64,000 bases of DNA from Escherichia phage vB_EcoM_ECO78: the sequence record PP526941.1, one strand, 5' to 3'. A program made the position numbers and the translations under genes. The number at the start of each line of letters is the position of its first letter. Within the stretch, counting starts at the first letter, position 1. The notes beneath the pieces are model-generated. The model was not told where the DNA came from. It saw only the letters and a list, made by a program, of their open reading frames with translations, and did not search any database. Shown here in pieces: positions 2,116 through 10,366 of the stretch.

Positions 2116-2679
2116 TTATTTGCTTAGTTTAGTTATTATAGCTTCGGCAGCAGCTTTTAGCTTAGATGCGGTGTTAATACGATTTTTAATTTCAGTATAC
2201 GCATCGCCAAGAACATCAAGGCTATCGGAATAAACACTTACACTATTGCGTTCGCTATTTGAAATAGAACCTTTAGTTTTACGATCAAAATCAGTGTACA
2301 CGTCTTGAAGATCACGGGCTGCCTTCTTTGCATCATCCAATGCATCAAGAGCTTTATTCAAAGCATTAACATATTTTTTAGTATCGAACATATTCTTAGA
2401 AATTTTAACAGGTGCACGTTCAGGAGTAGCTAAGGCAGATTTAGGAACCTGAGCGCCTGATGCTAATTTCTTAGAAATTTTGAAAAATGCTTTATTGAAT
2501 TTATTTTCTTGACTCATCGTAAAAGAACTATTATCAATGTTATACATTTCAATAGCTTTAGCTTTCCACTTAAGAAAATCGCCACGGTCTTTTGGGTCTA
2601 ATTGGAAGAATACTTTAGTAAGATCTGCTTCAGATGGTAATTTTGCTGCTTCGGTTAAAAATTCGGCGTAGGTTTTCAT
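2116..2679 (-). CDS. internal-protein-like capsid-targeted protein (IPIII-like), 187 aa
   Basis: N-terminus MKTYAEFLTEA resembles the T4 internal-protein capsid targeting sequence; AGGA RBS. Confidence 0.6.
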   Translation of the reverse strand: MKTYAEFLTEAAKLPSEADLTKVFFQLDPKDRGDFLKWKAKAIEMYNIDNSSFTMSQENKFNKAFFKISKKLASGAQVPKSALATPERAPVKISKNMFDTKKYVNALNKALDALDDAKKAARDLQDVYTDFDRKTKGSISNSERNSVSVYSDSLDVLGDAYTEIKNRINTASKLKAAAEAIITKLSK

Positions 2680-2761
2680 TTAAAATCCTTGAAATAATTT
2701 ATTGGTTATTAATTATTTATCACGTTGTTATATGTAACAGTATTATCCGAGCGATTCAAAC

Positions 2762-2790
2762 TAAAAAGCCCCAACCTTTCGGCTGAGGCT
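2762..2790 (-). terminator. rho-independent terminator; copy 1 of a repeated ~29-bp element
   Basis: AGCCCCAACCTTTCGGCTGAGGCT hairpin followed on the minus strand by UUUUU; near-identical to 3318-3345. Confidence 0.5.
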
Positions 2791-2797
2791 AAGAATG

Positions 2798-3271
2798 TTA
2801 TTTGATTTGTTTAGCAGACCAAATGCGGTCTTTAATAATTTTTTGGATGTCTTCAACATATTCAAGAGAGTGAACATGTGGGTTATCTTTGAAACTATAA
2901 GCACGAGCTAACTTTTGGCCTTCGGTTTTGATTACTAAAAGCTCTTTAAGGATAGCTTCATATTTAGCGATAATGCCTTTAACAATATTTTTTTCTTGTG
3001 CAGCTTTAGGATCTGCTTTAGGAGCAGGTTTACCCGAAGCCTTTGCAAAAGCAGCTCCAGTAGCAACTAAACTTTTCCAAGCCATACTAACTGCATTCCC
3101 TGTAAATCCTTCTGCTTTCATATCGCGAGCAAATTGGAATCGTGATTCATCGGAAGCATCTTTATAGGAATATTTACCCGCGGCAATGGCAGCTTTTGCA
3201 ACAGCTTGAATTTCGGTGCTAGATGCTTCATTTAACACCGCTTCATTTAAAAATTGAGCATATGATTTCAT
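2798..3271 (-). CDS. internal-protein-like capsid-targeted protein (IPII/IPIII-like), 157 aa
   Basis: N-terminus MKSYAQFLNEA (CTS-like); AGGAA RBS; minus-strand TATAAATA late promoter upstream. Confidence 0.6.
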   Translation of the reverse strand: MKSYAQFLNEAVLNEASSTEIQAVAKAAIAAGKYSYKDASDESRFQFARDMKAEGFTGNAVSMAWKSLVATGAAFAKASGKPAPKADPKAAQEKNIVKGIIAKYEAILKELLVIKTEGQKLARAYSFKDNPHVHSLEYVEDIQKIIKDRIWSAKQIK

Positions 3272-3307
3272 CTTATTTCCTGTTTTAATTCGTGGTTTTA
3301 ATATACT

Positions 3308-3315
3308 TATTTATA
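3308..3315 (-). promoter_or_regulatory. T4-type late promoter TATAAATA (minus strand)
   Basis: Exact TATAAATA on the minus strand about 35 nt upstream of the ATG at 3271. Confidence 0.55.
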
Positions 3316-3317
3316 CT

Positions 3318-3345
3318 AAAAAGCCCCAACCTTTCGGCTGGGGCT
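3318..3345 (-). terminator. rho-independent terminator; copy 2 of the repeated element
   Basis: AGCCCCA-ACCTTTCGGC-TGGGGCT hairpin followed on the minus strand by UUUUU; ends the non-coding block 3346-3656. Confidence 0.55.
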
Positions 3346-3656
3346 AAGCCTTGCGGCAACCTTGTCGGGGTTCCACCTGCTAAGGCAAGTGTTTGTACGA
3401 AACGCCGGGATTCGAACCCGGTTACCAAGCAGTTGACGCTACTCAATATTTTTAAAAGGCCATATCTCGACCATATCCGAACGTTCCGTCAAAAACGCTA
3501 CTCGGCTTACGGCAAAGATATTTCCTCGAATCGATAATTCGGTGCGCCGTTTCTGCTGTGATGTAAGGGGGCATTAACCGATCGCAAAGATTTGTTAATG
3601 CCAGTCCTTACCCAGGGAACATCAGTCCGACGACTTACCGGTAGCGACCCGGTTTC
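3346..3656 (-). ncRNA. candidate stable small RNA(s), positionally like T4 rnaC/rnaD at the distal end of the tRNA cluster
   Basis: 310 bp with no ORF of 60 aa or more on the transcribed strand; locally GC-richer; T-arm-like CCGGG-TTCGAAT-CCCGG on minus strand; terminator directly downstream. Confidence 0.35.
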
Positions 3657-4007
3657 TTAATATTCTTTTAAAGCATCAATCTGTTCACGGCGTTTACGCC
3701 ATAAATCAATTGCTTCATACGCAGATTCAGCATTTCGAATTAGCCGACATTTATATAAAGACTTATGATTTTGATATTGTGTAGATAACGGAATTTTATC
3801 TAAAAGGTCTTTACGTTCAAAATATTCGTAACCATCTAAACCAAATGAACGATTTTTAAGAAATTGCCAATGTCCAAATTCGTTTTCAACATAAACATAA
3901 TCTGCATGCTGATAAAGTAAATTAATTACACGTTCAGAAATAACAGTATCATTATGATTAAAATAGAATGTTAAATCATGAACTACTAAATAAACATTAC
4001 CTTTCAT
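3657..4007 (-). CDS. hypothetical protein, 116 aa
   Basis: ATG with GAGGAAA RBS immediately downstream of tRNA-Arg. Confidence 0.55.
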   Translation of the reverse strand: MKGNVYLVVHDLTFYFNHNDTVISERVINLLYQHADYVYVENEFGHWQFLKNRSFGLDGYEYFERKDLLDKIPLSTQYQNHKSLYKCRLIRNAESAYEAIDLWRKRREQIDALKEY

Positions 4008-4025: not shown

Positions 4026-4101
4026 TGGTCGAGGCAGTAGGGATCGAACCTACGACCCAGGACTTAGAAGGTCCTTGCTCTTCCTTCTGAGCTATGCCCC
4101 G
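4026..4101 (-). tRNA. tRNA-Arg (anticodon TCT), CCA encoded
   Basis: Manual fold: acceptor CGGGGCA/TGCCTCG, anticodon loop CTTCTAA, T-loop TTCGATC. Confidence 0.8.
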
Positions 4102-4105
4102 TAAT

Positions 4106-4181
4106 TGGGGTGACCGATGGGAGTCGAACCCATGACTACGAGAATCACAATCTCGAGTTCTACCAACTAAACTACGGCCAC
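4106..4181 (-). tRNA. tRNA-His (anticodon GTG), CCA encoded, no encoded G-1
   Basis: Manual fold: acceptor GTGGCCG/CGGTCAC, anticodon loop TTGTGAT, T-arm ATGGG-TTCGACT-CCCAT. Confidence 0.7.
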
Positions 4182-4294
4182 ATTAATACCTACTCCAACA
4201 ATCAAGATGTCTTCACACGAAATTAAGAGAAGAGTGATCAGTTCAACCCTATAATCGCGTCAAGTAGATATTAATGTGACAGTTGTCACAAATT

Positions 4295-4369
4295 TGGCGG
4301 ACGTGATAGGATTCGAACCTATAACCAATCGCTTAACAGGCGATCGCTCTGCCATTGAGCTACACATCC
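4295..4369 (-). tRNA. tRNA-Asn (anticodon GTT), CCA encoded
   Basis: Manual fold: acceptor GGATGTG/CACGTCC, anticodon loop CTGTTAA, T-arm ATAGG-TTCGAAT-CCTAT. Confidence 0.75.
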
Positions 4370-4373
4370 AAAT

Positions 4374-4460
4374 TGGTGGGGAGTGATGGAGTCGAACCAC
4401 CCGAGTCGCAATGACAATGGATTTACAGTCCACACCGCTACCTCTACGGGATAACTCCCC
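4374..4460 (-). tRNA. tRNA-Tyr (anticodon GTA), class II long variable arm, CCA encoded
   Basis: Manual fold: acceptor GGGGAGT/ACTCCCC, anticodon loop CTGTAAA, T-loop TTCGACT; 87 nt. Confidence 0.75.
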
Positions 4461-4473
4461 TTAATTCTTAATT

Positions 4474-4548
4474 TGGTGGCCCTGGGTGGAATTGAACCAC
4501 CATCTGGCGATTATGAGTCGCTTGCTTGAACCTTCCAGCTACAGGGCC
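4474..4548 (-). tRNA. tRNA with anticodon CAT (Met or lysidine-type Ile2), CCA encoded
   Basis: Manual fold: acceptor GGCCCTG/CAGGGCC, anticodon loop CTCATAA, T-arm GGTGG-TTCAATT-CCACC. Met versus Ile cannot be decided from sequence. Confidence 0.7.
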
Positions 4549-4556
4549 AAATTTTC

Positions 4557-5039
4557 TTATTTTATGTAATATTTATTTAAAAACTTTCTAGCTTGAGTAT
4601 GGCTAACATTTATAGCGTTTGCATAATTTTTAATAAAACCTCGTTCATCCATATTAAAATTTTCTAATATTTTTAATCGTCTAGTTATCTCATCTTGACT
4701 TAAGGTACTTGCATTATTTTTAGAAATTTTTTCTAAGGACTGTGCCGAGTGTTTTCTACCATTAAAATTAAAATTTTTAGATTTTGGAGGAAATCTAGCA
4801 TTTAATCTCGCATCTTTTGTATTTTGATTATTAGTTGCGCAATATATGTTATTTAATGAATATGGTCCTTTATCGCCGAAACGGCACATGCAGTATTCAT
4901 GACCCTTTCTTCCACGCTTATCATAATTTCCCGTCGATTTCCACCAATGCAGCCATTCATCAAAAGTTAAATTCCATTCAATGTTTCTACGTATAGCAGA
5001 ATTCCGCTGAGAAATATATTTTGCATAATCTTCTTTCAT
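4557..5039 (-). CDS. putative homing-endonuclease-like protein (Cys/His-rich core plus C-terminal HTH-like tail), 160 aa
   Basis: Sits between the two tRNA blocks, where T4 carries segB; motif GHEYCMCRFGDKGPYS...NNQN and basic C-terminus resembling an endonuclease DNA-binding domain. Track start is GTG; ATG at 5037-5039 preferred. Confidence 0.45.
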   Translation of the reverse strand: MKEDYAKYISQRNSAIRRNIEWNLTFDEWLHWWKSTGNYDKRGRKGHEYCMCRFGDKGPYSLNNIYCATNNQNTKDARLNARFPPKSKNFNFNGRKHSAQSLEKISKNNASTLSQDEITRRLKILENFNMDERGFIKNYANAINVSHTQARKFLNKYYIK

Positions 5040-5086
5040 CACAAATTTCTCTACTTATTCAATACACTGAGCTAAATCAGCAAAAC

Positions 5087-5176
5087 TGGCGGAGGCGATA
5101 GGATTTGAACCTATGAGTCGCCGGAGCGACTGCCGGTTTTCAAGACCGGTGCATTAAACCACTCTGCCACGCCTCC
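5087..5176 (-). tRNA. tRNA-Ser (anticodon TGA), class II, CCA encoded
   Basis: Manual fold: acceptor GGAGGCG/CGCCTCC, anticodon loop CTTGAAA, long variable arm, T-loop TTCAAAT. Confidence 0.8.
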
Positions 5177-5178
5177 AG

Positions 5179-5252
5179 TCTCCATACAAGGATTTGAACC
5201 TTGGACCTCCTGATCCCAAATCAGGCGCTCTACCAAACTGAGCTACACGGAG
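5179..5252 (-). tRNA. tRNA-Pro (anticodon TGG), CCA not encoded
   Basis: Manual fold: acceptor CTCCGTG/TATGGAG, anticodon loop TTTGGGA, T-arm CAAGG-TTCAAAT-CCTTG. Confidence 0.75.
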
Positions 5253-5262
5253 TAAATTAAAT

Positions 5263-5336
<74 letters not shown>

Positions 5337-5341
5337 AAATT

Positions 5342-5428
5342 TGGTGCGAGAAGTGGGACTCGAACCCACAAGGAAATCATTCCGCAGCATTTTAAGTGCT
5401 GTGCCTTTACCAATTTGACCATTCTCGC
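5342..5428 (-). tRNA. tRNA-Leu (anticodon TAA), class II, CCA encoded
   Basis: Manual fold: acceptor GCGAGAA/TTCTCGC, anticodon loop CTTAAAA, long variable arm, T-arm GTGGG-TTCGAGT-CCCAC. Confidence 0.8.
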
Positions 5429-5429
5429 G

Positions 5430-5502
5430 CTGGGAATAAAGGACTCGAACCTTTGCATCCTGGAATCAAAATCCAGTGCCTTACCAACTTGGCTAATTCC
5501 CA
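5430..5502 (-). tRNA. tRNA-Gln (anticodon TTG), CCA not encoded
   Basis: Manual fold: acceptor TGGGAAT/ATTCCCA, anticodon loop TTTTGAT, T-arm AAAGG-TTCGAGT-CCTTT. Confidence 0.8.
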
Positions 5503-5588
5503 ATTATTAACAAAGGCTCTCAAACAAGAACCCTTGATGATAGAGGGTATTAATCAGTGCGGTATGAATTAATAATAACAAATAATTC

Positions 5589-6104
5589 TTAAAGCAAATT
5601 AAACATTTTAACGGTCGGCAAAACAATTTCTTCTTCTATATAAGAGTATTTAACACTCTCAACTACACGCAAAAAATCATAATCATAATACTCAGAAGCA
5701 TTACCTAAAATATTAATAAGTCCTTCAAGCACTTTATTACCATTCGCAAAGAATAAGTCAAATACACGTTCTTCGTCTTCTTCGGATTTATTACCAAGGT
5801 CAACTTCTATATCAAATACCTTTTTAATGAATTCTGGATAAAGTTGTTCTGAGAACAGTCCTTCAACCAAGTATTCATAAATAAAAAGCGATTGCTCGCT
5901 GAACAAGCCATTACCACAATAGCGTTCAGCTTTAGTACTAGAATGTCTGCTTTTAAACTTCTTTAAAAGATATTGGAATTGTAAGATTTCATGCTCTTCT
6001 ACGCCAAACAATGTTTTGGTTTTATAGTTATCACCGTCATTTTCCCAGGTAGTGACATCAATTACGTAACCCTGCGGAATTGTAGTACCTAAACAAATAT
6101 TCAT
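5589..6104 (-). CDS. hypothetical early protein, 171 aa from the ATG
   Basis: Track start is GTG at 6113; ATG at 6102-6104 lies 2 nt after the stop of the upstream ORF (coupled). Confidence 0.5.
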   Translation of the reverse strand: MNICLGTTIPQGYVIDVTTWENDGDNYKTKTLFGVEEHEILQFQYLLKKFKSRHSSTKAERYCGNGLFSEQSLFIYEYLVEGLFSEQLYPEFIKKVFDIEVDLGNKSEEDEERVFDLFFANGNKVLEGLINILGNASEYYDYDFLRVVESVKYSYIEEEIVLPTVKMFNLL

Positions 6105-6106
6105 TT

Positions 6107-6397
6107 TCACCACGCTGCATTAATATAAGTATATTTAATACATTCAAGACCCAAAGGATTCTTGAAAATATCATATTCAAGAGGACCTTTTTCTGTTTCG
6201 ATAAAGAAATCAAAATTTACTGTATTAAATTTACGGTCTTCCTTCACTAATTTAACTTGAGAAGATGAACGGTCAATGTAAACCTTTTCAACTTCAAAAC
6301 ATGTTAAAATGCCATAATCATCAATCAAGGCTTTAGCCGCGTCTTGATCATATTTATATCCATTTTCAATGGACGATACTTTCGCATAAAGAATCAT
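6107..6397 (-). CDS. hypothetical early protein, 96 aa
   Basis: ATG adjacent to the stop of the upstream ORF (TAATAATG). Confidence 0.5.
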   Translation of the reverse strand: MILYAKVSSIENGYKYDQDAAKALIDDYGILTCFEVEKVYIDRSSSQVKLVKEDRKFNTVNFDFFIETEKGPLEYDIFKNPLGLECIKYTYINAAW

Positions 6398-6399
6398 TA

Positions 6400-6810
6400 T
6401 TAACCTTTATCAACAATAGTATGAGTATGGGCATTTACAATTTGCCACCAGTCGAAACTATCGCCAAATCGTTTTGATTTATTGTCTTCAATAATTTGGC
6501 GTAATTCATCTTCTGTTTCAGCATACGCAATCAAATCATCATATCCACCACAAGGATAGTAATTATCGCCTGCGAACAAAAGAAAATTTACTTTAGATGG
6601 GTCTACATAATAATGCTCTTTAGGATATTTAGTTCCTTTCCAATCAGTTACTTCAACATAACGGTAAGAAAATCCATTTTTACTTTCAACCCAACTCCAC
6701 GCTTCAAAAGGAGTATTAAAAACTTTATCAGGTATTAAATTACCTTCAAAATGAGAAGGATTTGCATAATCCCCAGCATAAACATAGTATTCGTTAATGT
6801 TAATACTCAT
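6400..6810 (-). CDS. hypothetical early protein, 136 aa
   Basis: ATG with AGGTGA RBS; aromatic-rich sequence. Confidence 0.55.
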   Translation of the reverse strand: MSININEYYVYAGDYANPSHFEGNLIPDKVFNTPFEAWSWVESKNGFSYRYVEVTDWKGTKYPKEHYYVDPSKVNFLLFAGDNYYPCGGYDDLIAYAETEDELRQIIEDNKSKRFGDSFDWWQIVNAHTHTIVDKG

Positions 6811-6996
6811 CTATTCACCTTTAGAAATTTTATCCATAACGATAGCAATTAAACCAATTAAAAATGCTACTACAAGTGAAAACACGTTTTCTGCTGTAGT
6901 CAATAATCCGCATATAAATCCAACAAACATTGAAAAACTAAAAGCAGAAGCAGAAATTGCAATAGCAACATTTCGAATTAATTCACAACGTTTCAT
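6811..6996 (-). CDS. small predicted membrane protein, 61 aa
   Basis: ATG with AGGAG RBS; two hydrophobic stretches (AIAISASAFSFSMFVGFICGLL and VFSLVVAFLIGLIAIV). Confidence 0.5.
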   Translation of the reverse strand: MKRCELIRNVAIAISASAFSFSMFVGFICGLLTTAENVFSLVVAFLIGLIAIVMDKISKGE

Positions 6997-7024
6997 TTTA
7001 TTCTCCTCGGTAGTTGATAGGGTA

Positions 7025-7053
7025 ATAGTATCACAACTAAAACCCTATGTAAA
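7025..7053 (-). promoter_or_regulatory. early promoter (-35 GTTTACA, 17 bp, -10 TACTAT)
   Basis: Minus strand atttcacaaagttGTTTACA-17nt-TACTAT, then AGGAG RBS and ATG at 6996. Confidence 0.55.
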
Positions 7054-7072
7054 CAACTTTGTGAAATATTTA

Positions 7073-7360
7073 TTACAAAAGATTTTTAGCAATAATCTTG
7101 AGATGTGCCGCAGAAATGTGTTTAGCTTTAAACAACGCAGTTTCTTCAGCAGGAGAGATAACGATTGTAGCACCATCCTTTTTAGCAGACCACCCATCAC
7201 CTAGGTAAACAGTACCTTTGATTTCTTCGCCATCAACCAAACTAATCATTGGTTTACCTTCTCGTCCTTTATTTGCTTTAATAACTTCAGAAGTAAGAGT
7301 AGCTTCAGTAATAGTAGAAACCGGGATAGTTGTAGAAGTAAATTCTTTGAAAGTTTTCAT
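7073..7360 (-). CDS. ipI: internal protein I (capsid-packaged, injected anti-restriction protein), 95 aa
   Basis: N-terminal CTS MKTFKEF...ITE; sequence and 95-aa length match T4 IPI as recalled; AGGAA RBS. Confidence 0.75.
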   Translation of the reverse strand: MKTFKEFTSTTIPVSTITEATLTSEVIKANKGREGKPMISLVDGEEIKGTVYLGDGWSAKKDGATIVISPAEETALFKAKHISAAHLKIIAKNLL

Positions 7361-7390
7361 TTTATTTTCCTAATTAATTTTGATGAGATA

Positions 7391-7419
7391 ATAGTATCAC
7401 TACCTCATCAGTATGTAAA
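7391..7419 (-). promoter_or_regulatory. early promoter (-35 GTTTACA, 17 bp, -10 TACTAT)
   Basis: Minus strand tttcacaaagttGTTTACA-17nt-TACTAT upstream of ipI; motif near-identical to 7025-7053. Confidence 0.55.
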
Positions 7420-7432
7420 CAACTTTGTGAAA

Positions 7433-8129
<697 letters not shown>

Positions 8130-8130
<1 letters not shown>

Positions 8131-8855
8131 TATAGTACCTTTAGTGTATTTTTAATTTTAGAAAAAAGTTCTTCAAGAGAACCATCGTTTGTAATTACTA
8201 AATCGCCATCACGAATTGGCAATCCAGCTTCTGTAATATGTGTATCATTGGATTTTTGACCAGGACGAACTACATGAATTACTGTAGCACCCATCGCCCT
8301 AGCCGCATCCATTTCATGATCTTGACGGGTATCAGGAACGATATAATAATCATAACCTGAGTTAAATTTATCAAGATAATCTAAAGCAAATAATTTTACC
8401 CAATACATGCGGTCGAAGTTATTAACAATCAAATCCGTACCTAGGGCTTGCATCAGACGACGGACTGACCATTGATCTTCAATATTATTTATAACGTCAG
8501 CAATCTTGTTAAATGCTACGAAAGTAACTGATTCTTTTCCTTCGTCATCAAAAACAAACACGCCTTTAATTGGGCTTTTACTATTAAGATAGCAAAATGC
8601 TTGTTCCATAATCGTAATTACTTCTAATTTAGTCAGATTTAAATTAGTCTCACGATCATAGTCAATTCCTTCAAACTCTCTACGAGTTAAGCAAGGATAA
8701 TCAGTGTTTGCTGCAAATACGCCCCATGCATAAGCCAATGCATCCTTAATAGGACCAGCAAGTTGGTATTTAATTGCAGAATAATTGCTCATGATAAAAT
8801 CGGCAGTAGTATCTTTTCCACTACGCTTTACACCGCTTAAAAAGATTAGTTTCAT
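8130..8855 (-). CDS. 1: deoxynucleoside monophosphate kinase (gp1), 241 aa
   Basis: MKLIFLSGVKRSGKDT P-loop N-terminus; GAGGAG RBS before the ATG at 8855 (track start at 8894 is an upstream extension). Confidence 0.9.
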
Positions 8856-8904
8856 GTGTTTCTCCTCAAATTTAATTAAGATTATAACACACAAAACTGA
8901 AGCA

Positions 8905-9435
8905 TTAAACTTCTGCTATAATTTTTCCATCTTTTTCTACTTGAAAATAGGTGTAAGGAATCGTTGCTGTACATACTAAAGCCGGGTCTGAATCTTCTGT
9001 ATAGCTAAATTCTACTTCAGACAGGTCAGAAACCCAAGGCTTATAAAAATTTATTGACATCACGATTTCAGTTTTGCTATTATCTAAGATGTAAAGCGTA
9101 ATGTACTCAGGACCTGTTTTTTGGGAAGTATTTTCACCTGTAAGATAGTTGCTAGTTCCTAGCATCCATTCATACATTCCTATCCACGACTTAAGTTCTT
9201 CATCAACTATAAATCTCACGATGAGTGGATCGTACTCAAATGTAGCACCTGGACGTTGTGCTCGGCCCAGTCCAAACGGCCCAGTCACGGTATCAGTAAC
9301 AGGTATTCTAATTCCTGGAATAGGAACTGACTGAGCATTTAAAGTAAAAGCAGATGTAGTATTACTATGTGGTATTGATACTACAAAGTTAGTTGTATTT
9401 GCTTGGTTAAAAATTTGTTGCAGAGCTTGCGACAT
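8905..9435 (-). CDS. 3: gp3, tail tube terminator/sheath stabiliser, 176 aa
   Basis: MSQALQQIFNQANTTNFVV...; ATG at 9433-9435 with GAGGA RBS; the track's 203-aa form starts at an upstream TTG. Confidence 0.8.
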   Translation of the reverse strand: MSQALQQIFNQANTTNFVVSIPHSNTTSAFTLNAQSVPIPGIRIPVTDTVTGPFGLGRAQRPGATFEYDPLIVRFIVDEELKSWIGMYEWMLGTSNYLTGENTSQKTGPEYITLYILDNSKTEIVMSINFYKPWVSDLSEVEFSYTEDSDPALVCTATIPYTYFQVEKDGKIIAEV

Positions 9436-9541
9436 ATATTCCTCATAATGCTTTATAACTGTTGGTGGTATAATGGGTCTAAGTCCCTTCCATTCAATTC
9501 CATTTAGAACAAACAACAGAAAAGAATGGAAGATAATAGAA

Positions 9542-10366
9542 TTAAATATTTGACCAGACTTTGTTTGCAGAGAAACGTTTTCCTTTTGAAACGAACTGCT
9601 GAAGTGGCATTAACACAACGTTCGCCCAGTCTTTCGGGGCGATTTCAACAAGGCTACCCATAATATTACCGGGTATATATGCCTTAATCATTTGGTCTGC
9701 ACCCCTAAATCCTTTCACTTGACTCCAATCAATTTTTAATTTCGTTTTATTAGTAATAGTAGGTGTATTTGAATATTGCTTTAAAAGCTCTTCTAGGAAT
9801 TGCTGACGAGCTTTAGGTGGAATATAGTGCAAGTTTAATCCGTACATTAAATTATGCTTACCTAAACCAAGGTAAATTATCAAAGGAAATTTATCCCAGT
9901 AAGGAAGAGTTTCCTTGTGTTTAGCATCATAAGCAAAAGCATATATTCGTCCCGGCTGCGGGCGAACAACTTTATGTCCTTTTACTTGCTTAATAGTTTC
10001 AGCAAACCACTTTCTAGTTTTATTATTAATTGCTGCGCCTTCATTACGAATTTTATCACGCAATGTTTGCCTGAATGAATTTATCATAAGCAGTTGTCTT
10101 TCTTGCTTATTGAGTTTATTCATTGGTTTTGATTCAAGCTTTTGAATCTTTTCAGCTGTTTTAATTCCTGAAGCATATTTTGACATTGCTGAAGTAAACG
10201 TAGAGTATTTTATTCCTCTTTCTTCAGCAAATTGCTTTCCTGTCATTCCTTTTGCTTTGGCCTTTTTATATTCAAGACCTATCTGAATCCATTTCTTTTC
10301 GTTTAATGATTGCTTAACCTTTGGAACTTGGGGAGTGCTTTCATTAATTATTTGAAAAATAGCCAT
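9542..10366 (-). CDS. 2: gp2, DNA end-protector protein, 274 aa
   Basis: Length and position (between 3 and 4) as in T4; basic protein; start overlaps the gene 4 stop. Confidence 0.85.

Follow-up and report, generated by a model that had tools for sequence, protein, structure and literature searches.

Early genes trna.4, trna.3 and trna.2 with an optional gene, orf171, between ipI and the tRNA cluster of Escherichia phage vB_EcoM_ECO78

Introduction

T4-like phages carry promoter-early stem-loop (PeSL) cassettes, in which an early promoter lies in an inverted repeat at the border of a variable open reading frame (ORF) (Arbiol 2010; Comeau 2014). The PST/T4 consensus of these promoters is TTTACW-N17-TAYWAT, and the T4 ip locus was, according to the authors, the first place where PeSL-type shuffling was noticed (PMC4122927). 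Here we describe a block of four early genes, trna.4, trna.3, trna.2 and orf171, which occupies positions 5,589 to 6,996 of a 64,000-nucleotide stretch of Escherichia phage vB_EcoM_ECO78 (PP526941.1; the whole stretch is called the window) and lies between ipI and a cluster of tRNA genes.

T4 is the best-studied virulent phage, and about half of its early genes are still without a function. The products of ipI and 57B, IPI and Acb1, are small proteins encoded in the same block and on the same strand as the genes described here, and they were recognized as anti-restriction and anti-CBASS (cyclic-oligonucleotide-based anti-phage signaling system) factors, respectively, decades after sequencing; IPI is packaged and injected and Acb1 is a 2H phosphodiesterase. 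Other small early proteins of previously unknown fold, for example 55.2 and MotB of T4 and Emp/Gp94 of Mosigvirus AV110, bind host proteins and are toxic in Escherichia coli. T4 also encodes the superinfection immunity protein Imm, a small early inner-membrane protein of 83 aa with two helices.

Gene Identity and Family Membership

An initial annotation of the window reported four tightly coupled minus-strand ORFs of 61, 136, 96 and 171 aa, and their coordinates and sizes (Table 1) were borne out, with intergenic gaps of 0, 2 and 2 nt and a Shine-Dalgarno-like motif before every start (GAGGAG, AAGGTGA, AAAGG and GGTGA). For the last ORF an alternative GTG start at 6113 would give a product of 174 aa; the length of 171 aa was retained because every homologue begins with MNI.

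The 61-aa ORF product is 100% identical over 61 aa to T4 Trna.4 (NP_049748), the 136-aa product is 86% identical to Trna.3 (NP_049747) and the 96-aa product 93% identical to Trna.2 (NP_049746), while orf171 has no T4 counterpart and encodes a protein 87% identical to a 171-aa hypothetical protein of T2 (XUQ82627.1). PHROG profile searches placed Trna.4 in phrog_1692 (E 6e-35), Trna.3 in phrog_1411 (E 3e-50), Trna.2 in phrog_2023 (E 4e-48) and the orf171 product, by a full-length profile match over residues 1-170, in phrog_2290 (E 7e-69); all four families are annotated only as unknown function. Based on these similarities, the genes are almost certainly trna.4, trna.3 and trna.2 of T-even phages plus a T2-type orf171. 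The suggestion that they might form an undescribed system is therefore not sustained, since three of the ORFs are T4 genes and the remaining one is present, as a known hypothetical gene, in T2 and many other phages: the set was already known and annotated as hypothetical. What is newly noted is the tandem-domain architecture of Trna.3, with a swappable N-terminal copy, together with other structural and evolutionary detail, including the model of the orf171 product, the PeSL nature of the promoter and the lack of a clear terminator before the tRNA genes.

The genome is that of a T4-like phage (Tequatrovirus) and not of T4 itself, and the closest DNA match for positions 5400-7400 is Shigella phage ESh18 (95.8%). 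T4 has trna.4, trna.3 and trna.2 in the same order, with the same upstream promoter sequence, ipI upstream and tRNA-Gln downstream. The window phage differs in that a further gene, encoding 171 aa, separates trna.2 from the Mot box of a middle promoter, as well as in the last residues of Trna.2 and in residues 102-119 of Trna.3. T2 has orf171 at the same place, directly upstream of tRNA-Gln, but lacks trna.3 and a T4-type ipI, so that the four-gene combination of the window differs from both T2 and T4.

The absence of an assignable motif noted in the initial annotation was confirmed, as family libraries, solved-structure searches and fold searches gave no function for any of the four ORFs. Nothing above noise was found for the four proteins in Pfam (in a version without PF26894), NCBIfam or PADLOC. 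Precomputed Pfam assignments do exist, PF26894 on all 17 Trna.3 homologues and PF27001 on all 45 Trna.2 homologues; a literature search returned no description of either family, nor any functional study of trna.3 or trna.4 when gene names, protein accessions, family identifiers and T4 early-gene screens were covered.

Distribution, Synteny and Selection

Distribution was assessed by tblastn against 50,697 phage records. Trna.4 matched 779 records, 428 of them at ≥99% identity, and Trna.2 matched 798. For Trna.3 there were 760 matching records with identities mostly between 36 and 98%, of which 470 fell below 60%. The orf171 product matched 571 records, 253 at ≥60%; the matches below this value belong to T4-like phages of Klebsiella, Aeromonas, Enterobacter, Cronobacter and Yersinia.

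In a synteny sample of 19 T-even-type loci, 15 of which were located via the neighbouring core gene 57A, the order trna.4, trna.3, trna.2, orf171, tRNAs was constant. Gene content was not: trna.4 is present in all 19 loci, trna.3 in 18, trna.2 in 16 and orf171 in 10, and T4 and T2 each lack a different member, so that obligate co-inheritance was not observed. By DNA alignment, orf171 is a clean insertion/deletion relative to T4. The independent loss or exchange of trna.3, trna.2 and orf171 argues against an obligate four-part system. The placement of the operon in a variable interval thus holds for trna.3, trna.2 and orf171 and does not for trna.4; the initial annotation had set identical conservation in all T-even phages as the outcome that would speak against its proposal, and trna.4, with its 428 near-identical records, comes close to that outcome. 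The block as such is conserved in T-even genomes, but its members vary independently of one another, so that it can be called neither free-floating cargo nor an obligate four-gene unit.

Pairwise comparison with 12-19 relatives per gene, where the synonymous rate dS could be estimated, gave ratios of nonsynonymous to synonymous substitution (dN/dS) of 0.00-0.43 for all four ORFs; for trna.4, dN was 0 against Tequatrovirus relatives at a dS of 0.075-0.13. Judging from these ratios, all four ORFs are real genes under purifying selection; their PHROG matches and the detection of the T4 orthologues of two of them as early proteins likewise speak against chance ORFs. Among Tequatroviruses trna.4 is 100% identical with a flanking dS of about 0.1, and in the same genomes trna.3 alleles are 50-85% identical with dS from 0.26 to 1.45 or more. 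Such high dS values beside an invariant trna.4 argue for replacement by old alleles and not for rapid divergence in place.

Some distant orf171 homologues have distinctive surroundings. In a metagenomic contig (L027, region 4147-9603) a homologue with an N-terminal extension (P0032, 5001-5603) is flanked by cREC_REC and NAMPT genes, with a Pif1-like helicase and a T4-type RNA ligase 1 close by and an NMNAT/Nudix gene upstream of the region at 2528-3526, which makes this a NAD-salvage and RNA-repair neighbourhood. A conserved gene related to gp30.3 lies inside the tRNA cluster downstream of the orf171 homologue in Enterobacter phage EnC15, a Karamvirus (4447-4896 of locus L023; Pfam Phage_30_3, E 1e-59) and in Klebsiella phage Lion_ER11 (3058-3507 of locus L005); the two proteins are 89% identical, and the gene directly follows the orf171 homologue in Lion_ER11 and is separated from it by two small ORFs in EnC15.

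Promoters and Transcription

The early promoter proposed for the operon at 7025-7053 was found exactly at this position. It consists of an upstream block CACAAAGTTG, a -35 element TTTACA (7053-7048), a spacer of 17 nt and a -10 element TACTAT (7030-7025) with an extended -10 TG (7033-7032), and the -10 is flanked by the inverted repeat TAGGGT (7047-7042)/ACCCTA (7023-7018). This promoter thus fits the PeSL consensus, and the inverted repeat associated with PeSL promoters is present as well. It is conserved in T4, ESh18, SA21RB, T2 and AV110; the T2 promoter retains the same stem and in Mosigvirus AV110 a stem is kept with other sequence (ATAGGACTA/TAGTCCTAT).

An exact 17-nt block, CACAAAGTTGTTTACAT, is common to this promoter (7063-7047) and to that of ipI (7429-7413), and none of 100 shuffles gave three or more matches to the block at up to three mismatches; a generic sigma-70 scan showed no enrichment (8 sites vs 9.2 expected). 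The ipI promoter has the same TTTACA-17-TACTAT form at 7419-7391, with an inverted repeat TGATGAG/CTCATCA around its -10. Near-identical PeSL promoters therefore bracket ipI on the minus strand (7361-7432 and 6997-7072).

As in PeSL cassettes, such a promoter is repeated on both sides of ipI. Between conserved flanks, the ip genes vary from locus to locus: T2 carries two different ones at the ipI place, and many loci are without a T4-type ipI. The two PeSL promoters around ipI fit this variable ip content between T4, T2 and other loci. Unlike in PeSL cassettes, the orf171 insertion/deletion has no PeSL at its borders, which are the end of trna.2 on one side and the Mot box of a middle promoter on the other.

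This middle promoter, which comprises the Mot box ATTTGCTTTA (5599-5590), a 14-nt spacer and a -10 element TATTAT (5577-5572), overlaps the orf171 stop codon, and DNA homology with T4 picks up again exactly at the Mot box TGCTTTAAG. A middle promoter just upstream of the T4 tRNA cluster is reported to drive tRNA transcription (PMC2330249, citing Broida and Abelson 1985), and the MotA-type promoter of the window corresponds to it. A weak AT-rich inverted repeat, GAATTA/TAATTC, lies around its -10 (5566-5588, minus strand) and may be due to chance; it resembles the "PmSL" variant of PeSL in vibriophage nt-1.

In T4, a time-resolved study combining RNA sequencing and proteomics classified trna.2 and trna.3 as early at both the RNA and the protein level, and trna.4 and the downstream tRNAs as early RNAs (PMC9697503 supplements). 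A terminator scan revealed no terminator-like site between orf171 (5589) and tRNA-Gln (5502), and for this reason the early transcript probably continues by read-through into the tRNA genes. Within orf171, a terminator-like hairpin AGCGA-GCAA-TCGCT followed by a T-run was seen (5887-5908, minus strand), the number of such hairpins being within chance for the region. Inside trna.2, a late-promoter-like motif, TATAAATA, is one of only 8 of its type on the minus strand in 64 kb and is kept at the same codon positions in T4 trna.2; it could give rise to late transcripts spanning orf171 and the tRNA genes.

Features of the Encoded Proteins

The two transmembrane helices attributed to the 61-aa protein agree with its hydropathy profile, which shows two hydrophobic segments (residues ~9-31 and ~36-56) with charged ends, and Trna.4 is predicted to be an inner-membrane hairpin with both termini in the cytoplasm. 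Trna.2 is acidic (pI 4.8).

An AlphaFold2 model of Trna.3 (pLDDT 80, pTM 0.48) consists of two small alpha/beta domains and had no significant neighbour in the PDB by fold search. A profile search of 1.84 billion representatives returned 477 cluster representatives at E<=1e-3, nearly all of them stand-alone proteins of 55-100 aa that align to the C-terminal domain only and share the motif (F/L)L(F/L)(A/G)G..YYP.GG..D...T.EEA...DWW(Q/H)IVD, which the C-terminal copy of the window protein holds as FLLFAGDNYYPxGG...DWWQIV. The N-terminal domain is related to the same stand-alone family (hhalign probability 96%, E 4e-9). Trna.3 is thus a tandem duplication of a widespread phage domain of ~60 aa, of which the N-terminal copy is degenerate and variable. 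In every allele whose overall identity lies below 90% (14 of 17), identity is 23-51% in the N-domain as against 64-100% in the C-domain, and two alleles (P0003 and P0007) are clear recombinants.

The members of the C-domain family, proteins P0082-P0226 among them, are phage or metagenomic proteins, and one of them (P0125) is fused to an Xre-type helix-turn-helix domain. Cluster look-ups for ten stand-alone homologues gave no informative names. One further hit of the profile search, P0090 (2031 aa), is an unrelated repeat protein and was discarded as a false positive.

The model of the orf171 product is confident and shows a three-stranded sheet with five helices and a conserved hairpin motif, TWENDGDNYKT; it matched no known fold. 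For the three soluble proteins, sequence and profile searches found no credible relative among solved structures. A BFVD fold search returned only uncharacterized phage proteins. A weak match to sensors based on green fluorescent protein (GFP) was rejected, as only a beta-hairpin motif is shared (NDGDNYKT as against DDGNYKT in GFP).

Functional Interpretation

The evidence modestly favours an explanation in which the block consists of independent early genes of T-even phages, with a PeSL promoter and with orf171 as an optional member. Transcription would start immediately after infection from the PeSL-type promoter at the border of the ip locus, translation of the four cistrons would begin at closely spaced starts, and the early transcript would run on into the tRNA genes, the operon acting as its leader; the tRNA genes also have a MotA-dependent middle promoter to themselves, located at the 3' end of orf171. 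One of the encoded proteins is a predicted inner-membrane hairpin of two helices, and the other three are small, acidic and soluble and show neither a catalytic motif nor a known fold. Each protein would act on its own early in infection, binding stoichiometrically to some macromolecule of the host or the phage and so taking part in host takeover or counter-defence. The chances seem about even that the four proteins are binders of this kind and not enzymes or parts of one complex, and a specific role in counter-defence is conceivable for one or more of them, if somewhat unlikely.

Several observations weigh against this explanation. Trna.4 is near-invariant in hundreds of phages, unlike most proteins engaged in an arms race, which suggests a conserved, housekeeping-like partner. 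The read-through into the tRNA genes has the missing terminator motif as its sole basis. The pull-down with DRT1 that is described below (PMC13275509), which the authors of that study did not take further, may be explained by non-specific attachment to the DNA adduct. A growth-inhibition screen that covered 45 early AV110 proteins found six to be inhibitory (gp94, 135, 204, 208, 214 and 263), and the orthologues of the four proteins are not among them; these orthologues correspond to gp247-250 by our own count, which assumes sequential numbering from gp95 = MotA, and their inclusion in the screen is unconfirmed. If they were tested, they would not be toxic, in contrast to 55.2, MotB and Emp/Gp94, and this lack of toxicity does not favour a strong role in host shut-off. 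AV110 gp135 was considered as an orthologue and ruled out, since it maps elsewhere in the AV110 genome.

A more specific proposal is that one or more of the products are devoted to inhibiting a particular bacterial immune system or serving as its decoy, extending the IPI/Acb1 anti-defence island; we regard this as possible but doubtful. The leading candidates would be Trna.2 acting on DRT1 and Trna.3 matching variable host targets via its swappable N-terminal domain. The anti-defence neighbourhood indicated in the initial annotation is real, for the two genes directly upstream are proven anti-defence genes (ipI, Pfam IPI_T4, E 7e-54; 57B, Pfam Acb1, E 3e-60), but this is guilt by association in a region that gathers accessory genes of all kinds. 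Expression is early, and the proteins are small, acidic and with no known fold in the case of the soluble ones; against this, no sequence or fold similarity to known anti-defence families (Acb1, IPI, Tad, Acr and others) was detected in them and, unlike IPI and Acb1, they carry neither an enzyme motif nor ip-type features.

The most direct hint comes from a pull-down during T4 infection, in which just two phage proteins, Trna.2 and Inh, were enriched with wild-type DRT1 over the RT-knockout (reverse-transcriptase knockout) control; according to the same authors, however, sensitivity to DRT1 tracked with Dda and not with Trna.2 (PMC13275509). Further support is given by the cassette-like variation of the Trna.3 N-domain next to a constant C-domain, by the strain-dependent presence of orf171, and by the distant orf171 homologue that sits among NAMPT, NMNAT/Nudix, cREC and RNA ligase 1 (Rnl1) genes, whereas dN/dS well under 1 for all four genes and the high conservation of Trna.4 and Trna.2 point the other way. 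In its most explicit form, in which one or more of the proteins would counter host defence by a new mechanism and with a new fold, this proposal is rather unlikely. Its two most plausible versions are that Trna.2 would bind or neutralize the DRT1 reverse-transcriptase filament, or that Trna.3 would be an adaptor whose conserved YYPxGG...DWWQIV C-domain holds a constant partner while the N-terminal copy tracks variable host immune proteins.

The position of the operon raises the alternative that its proteins serve the adjacent tRNA genes, maturing or protecting phage tRNAs or blocking host nucleases that target tRNAs, and are co-transcribed with them for this reason. Wherever a T-even-type locus extends as far as the tRNA cluster, the operon lies immediately upstream of the cluster (locus L020 stops inside trna.2), no terminator precedes tRNA-Gln, the tRNA clusters of Karamvirus EnC15, Tegunavirus TG1 and Klebsiella phage Lion_ER11 contain orf171 homologues, and the homologue adjoining cREC and RNA ligase 1 genes is in an RNA-repair context. 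Nevertheless, the tRNA region is a known hyperplastic region where adjacency may be plain synteny, and T4 tRNA genes are mainly transcribed from their own middle promoter (PMC2330249). Moreover, no RNA-binding or nuclease-related motif was detected in the four proteins, and neither the homologues from outside Tevenvirinae nor those of Aeromonas phages have a tRNA gene within 2.5-5 kb; because these distant homologues lack nearby tRNA genes, a tRNA-linked role was downgraded and is considered improbable.

That the four genes act together as a single coordinated early system, for instance for superinfection exclusion with Trna.4 as the membrane part and the others as soluble partners, as had been proposed for the operon, seems quite improbable. 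The tight spacing, the adjacent stop and start codons and the fixed order would agree with such a system, and Trna.4 shares with T4 Imm the general architecture of a small, early, two-helix membrane protein. The genes are nonetheless not co-inherited: T4 without orf171, T2 without trna.3 and three loci without trna.2 are all viable phages, and trna.3 alleles are swapped with no matching change in trna.4. Trna.4 is shorter than Imm (61 vs 83 aa), which has longer loops, and no exclusion phenotype is known for it; as an Imm-type superinfection immunity protein it was rejected because there is no sequence similarity between the two (BLASTP E 1.2). Both this proposal and that of a service to the tRNA genes are weaker than the explanation by independent binders.

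The T4 tRNA region is dispensable in laboratory hosts, and no function is detectable for the four ORFs. That they are functionless filler or a mere transcribed leader for the tRNA genes is very improbable all the same and is effectively excluded by the proteomic and selection data, since the T4 Trna.2 and Trna.3 proteins were detected by mass spectrometry (PMC9697503 supplements), the genes are kept in hundreds of genomes of several genera, and purifying selection is strong (dN/dS 0-0.43, with dN = 0 for trna.4 at a dS of ~0.1).

Although the genes re-identified here were known as hypothetical, the added structural and evolutionary detail guides the choice of gene for further work, with priority for Trna.2 in relation to DRT1, followed by the Trna.3 N-domain alleles and then the presence or absence of orf171. 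Were any of the four proteins to act in counter-defence or host takeover, a gap would be closed in a model system, and if this were true for Trna.3, a large family of small phage proteins would be annotated, giving at least ~470 clusters of ~65-aa proteins their first function.

Other Features of the Region

The features of the locus are collected in Table 1.

Table 1. Coordinates of genes and regulatory elements around the trna.4-orf171 block (positions of the window)
Feature	Position	Strand	Remarks or basis
trna.4 (61-aa ORF)	6811-6996	minus	tiny predicted membrane hairpin
trna.3 (136-aa ORF)	6400-6810	minus	acidic protein, two tandem domain copies
trna.2 (96-aa ORF)	6107-6397	minus	acidic protein
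orf171 (171-aa ORF)	5589-6104 (from ATG)	minus	acidic, pI 4.5, net charge -14
PeSL-type early promoter	7018-7063	minus	promoter scan; repeat of ipI promoter block
MotA-type middle promoter	5566-5599	minus	pattern search; T4 alignment
Late-promoter-like motif inside trna.2	6351-6358	minus	TATAAATA; motif search
ipI	7073-7360	minus	
57B	7433-7891	minus	
57A	7888-8130	minus	
Gene 1 (dNMP kinase)	upstream of 57A	minus	
Ten tRNA genes	4026-5502	minus	split by 161-aa ORF; ARAGORN and Rfam
First tRNA block (Gln, Leu, Gly, Pro, Ser)	5087-5502	minus	ARAGORN and Rfam

The tRNA set of the window comprises Gln, Leu, Gly, Pro, Ser, Met, Tyr, Asn, His and Arg. T4 has eight tRNAs, from which the window differs by the presence of His, Asn and Tyr and the absence of Thr, and the window Met(CAT) gene is the counterpart of the gene annotated as tRNA-Ile in T4. 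In the relatives sampled the number of tRNA genes at the locus ranges from 2 to 11, and a more distant locus (L022) has 14.

The 161-aa ORF (4557-5042, minus strand) interrupts the cluster between tRNA-Ser and tRNA-Met, near the place where T4 has the homing endonuclease gene segB (between its tRNA-Ile and tRNA-Arg). It belongs to phrog_16521 (unknown function; E 5e-55), has no Pfam match and could be a degenerate or novel mobile-element gene. Directly after tRNA-Arg there is a 116-aa ORF (3657-4007, minus strand) of phrog_3355 (unknown function), also with no Pfam match, and in T2 the same place is occupied by an ORF of equal size.

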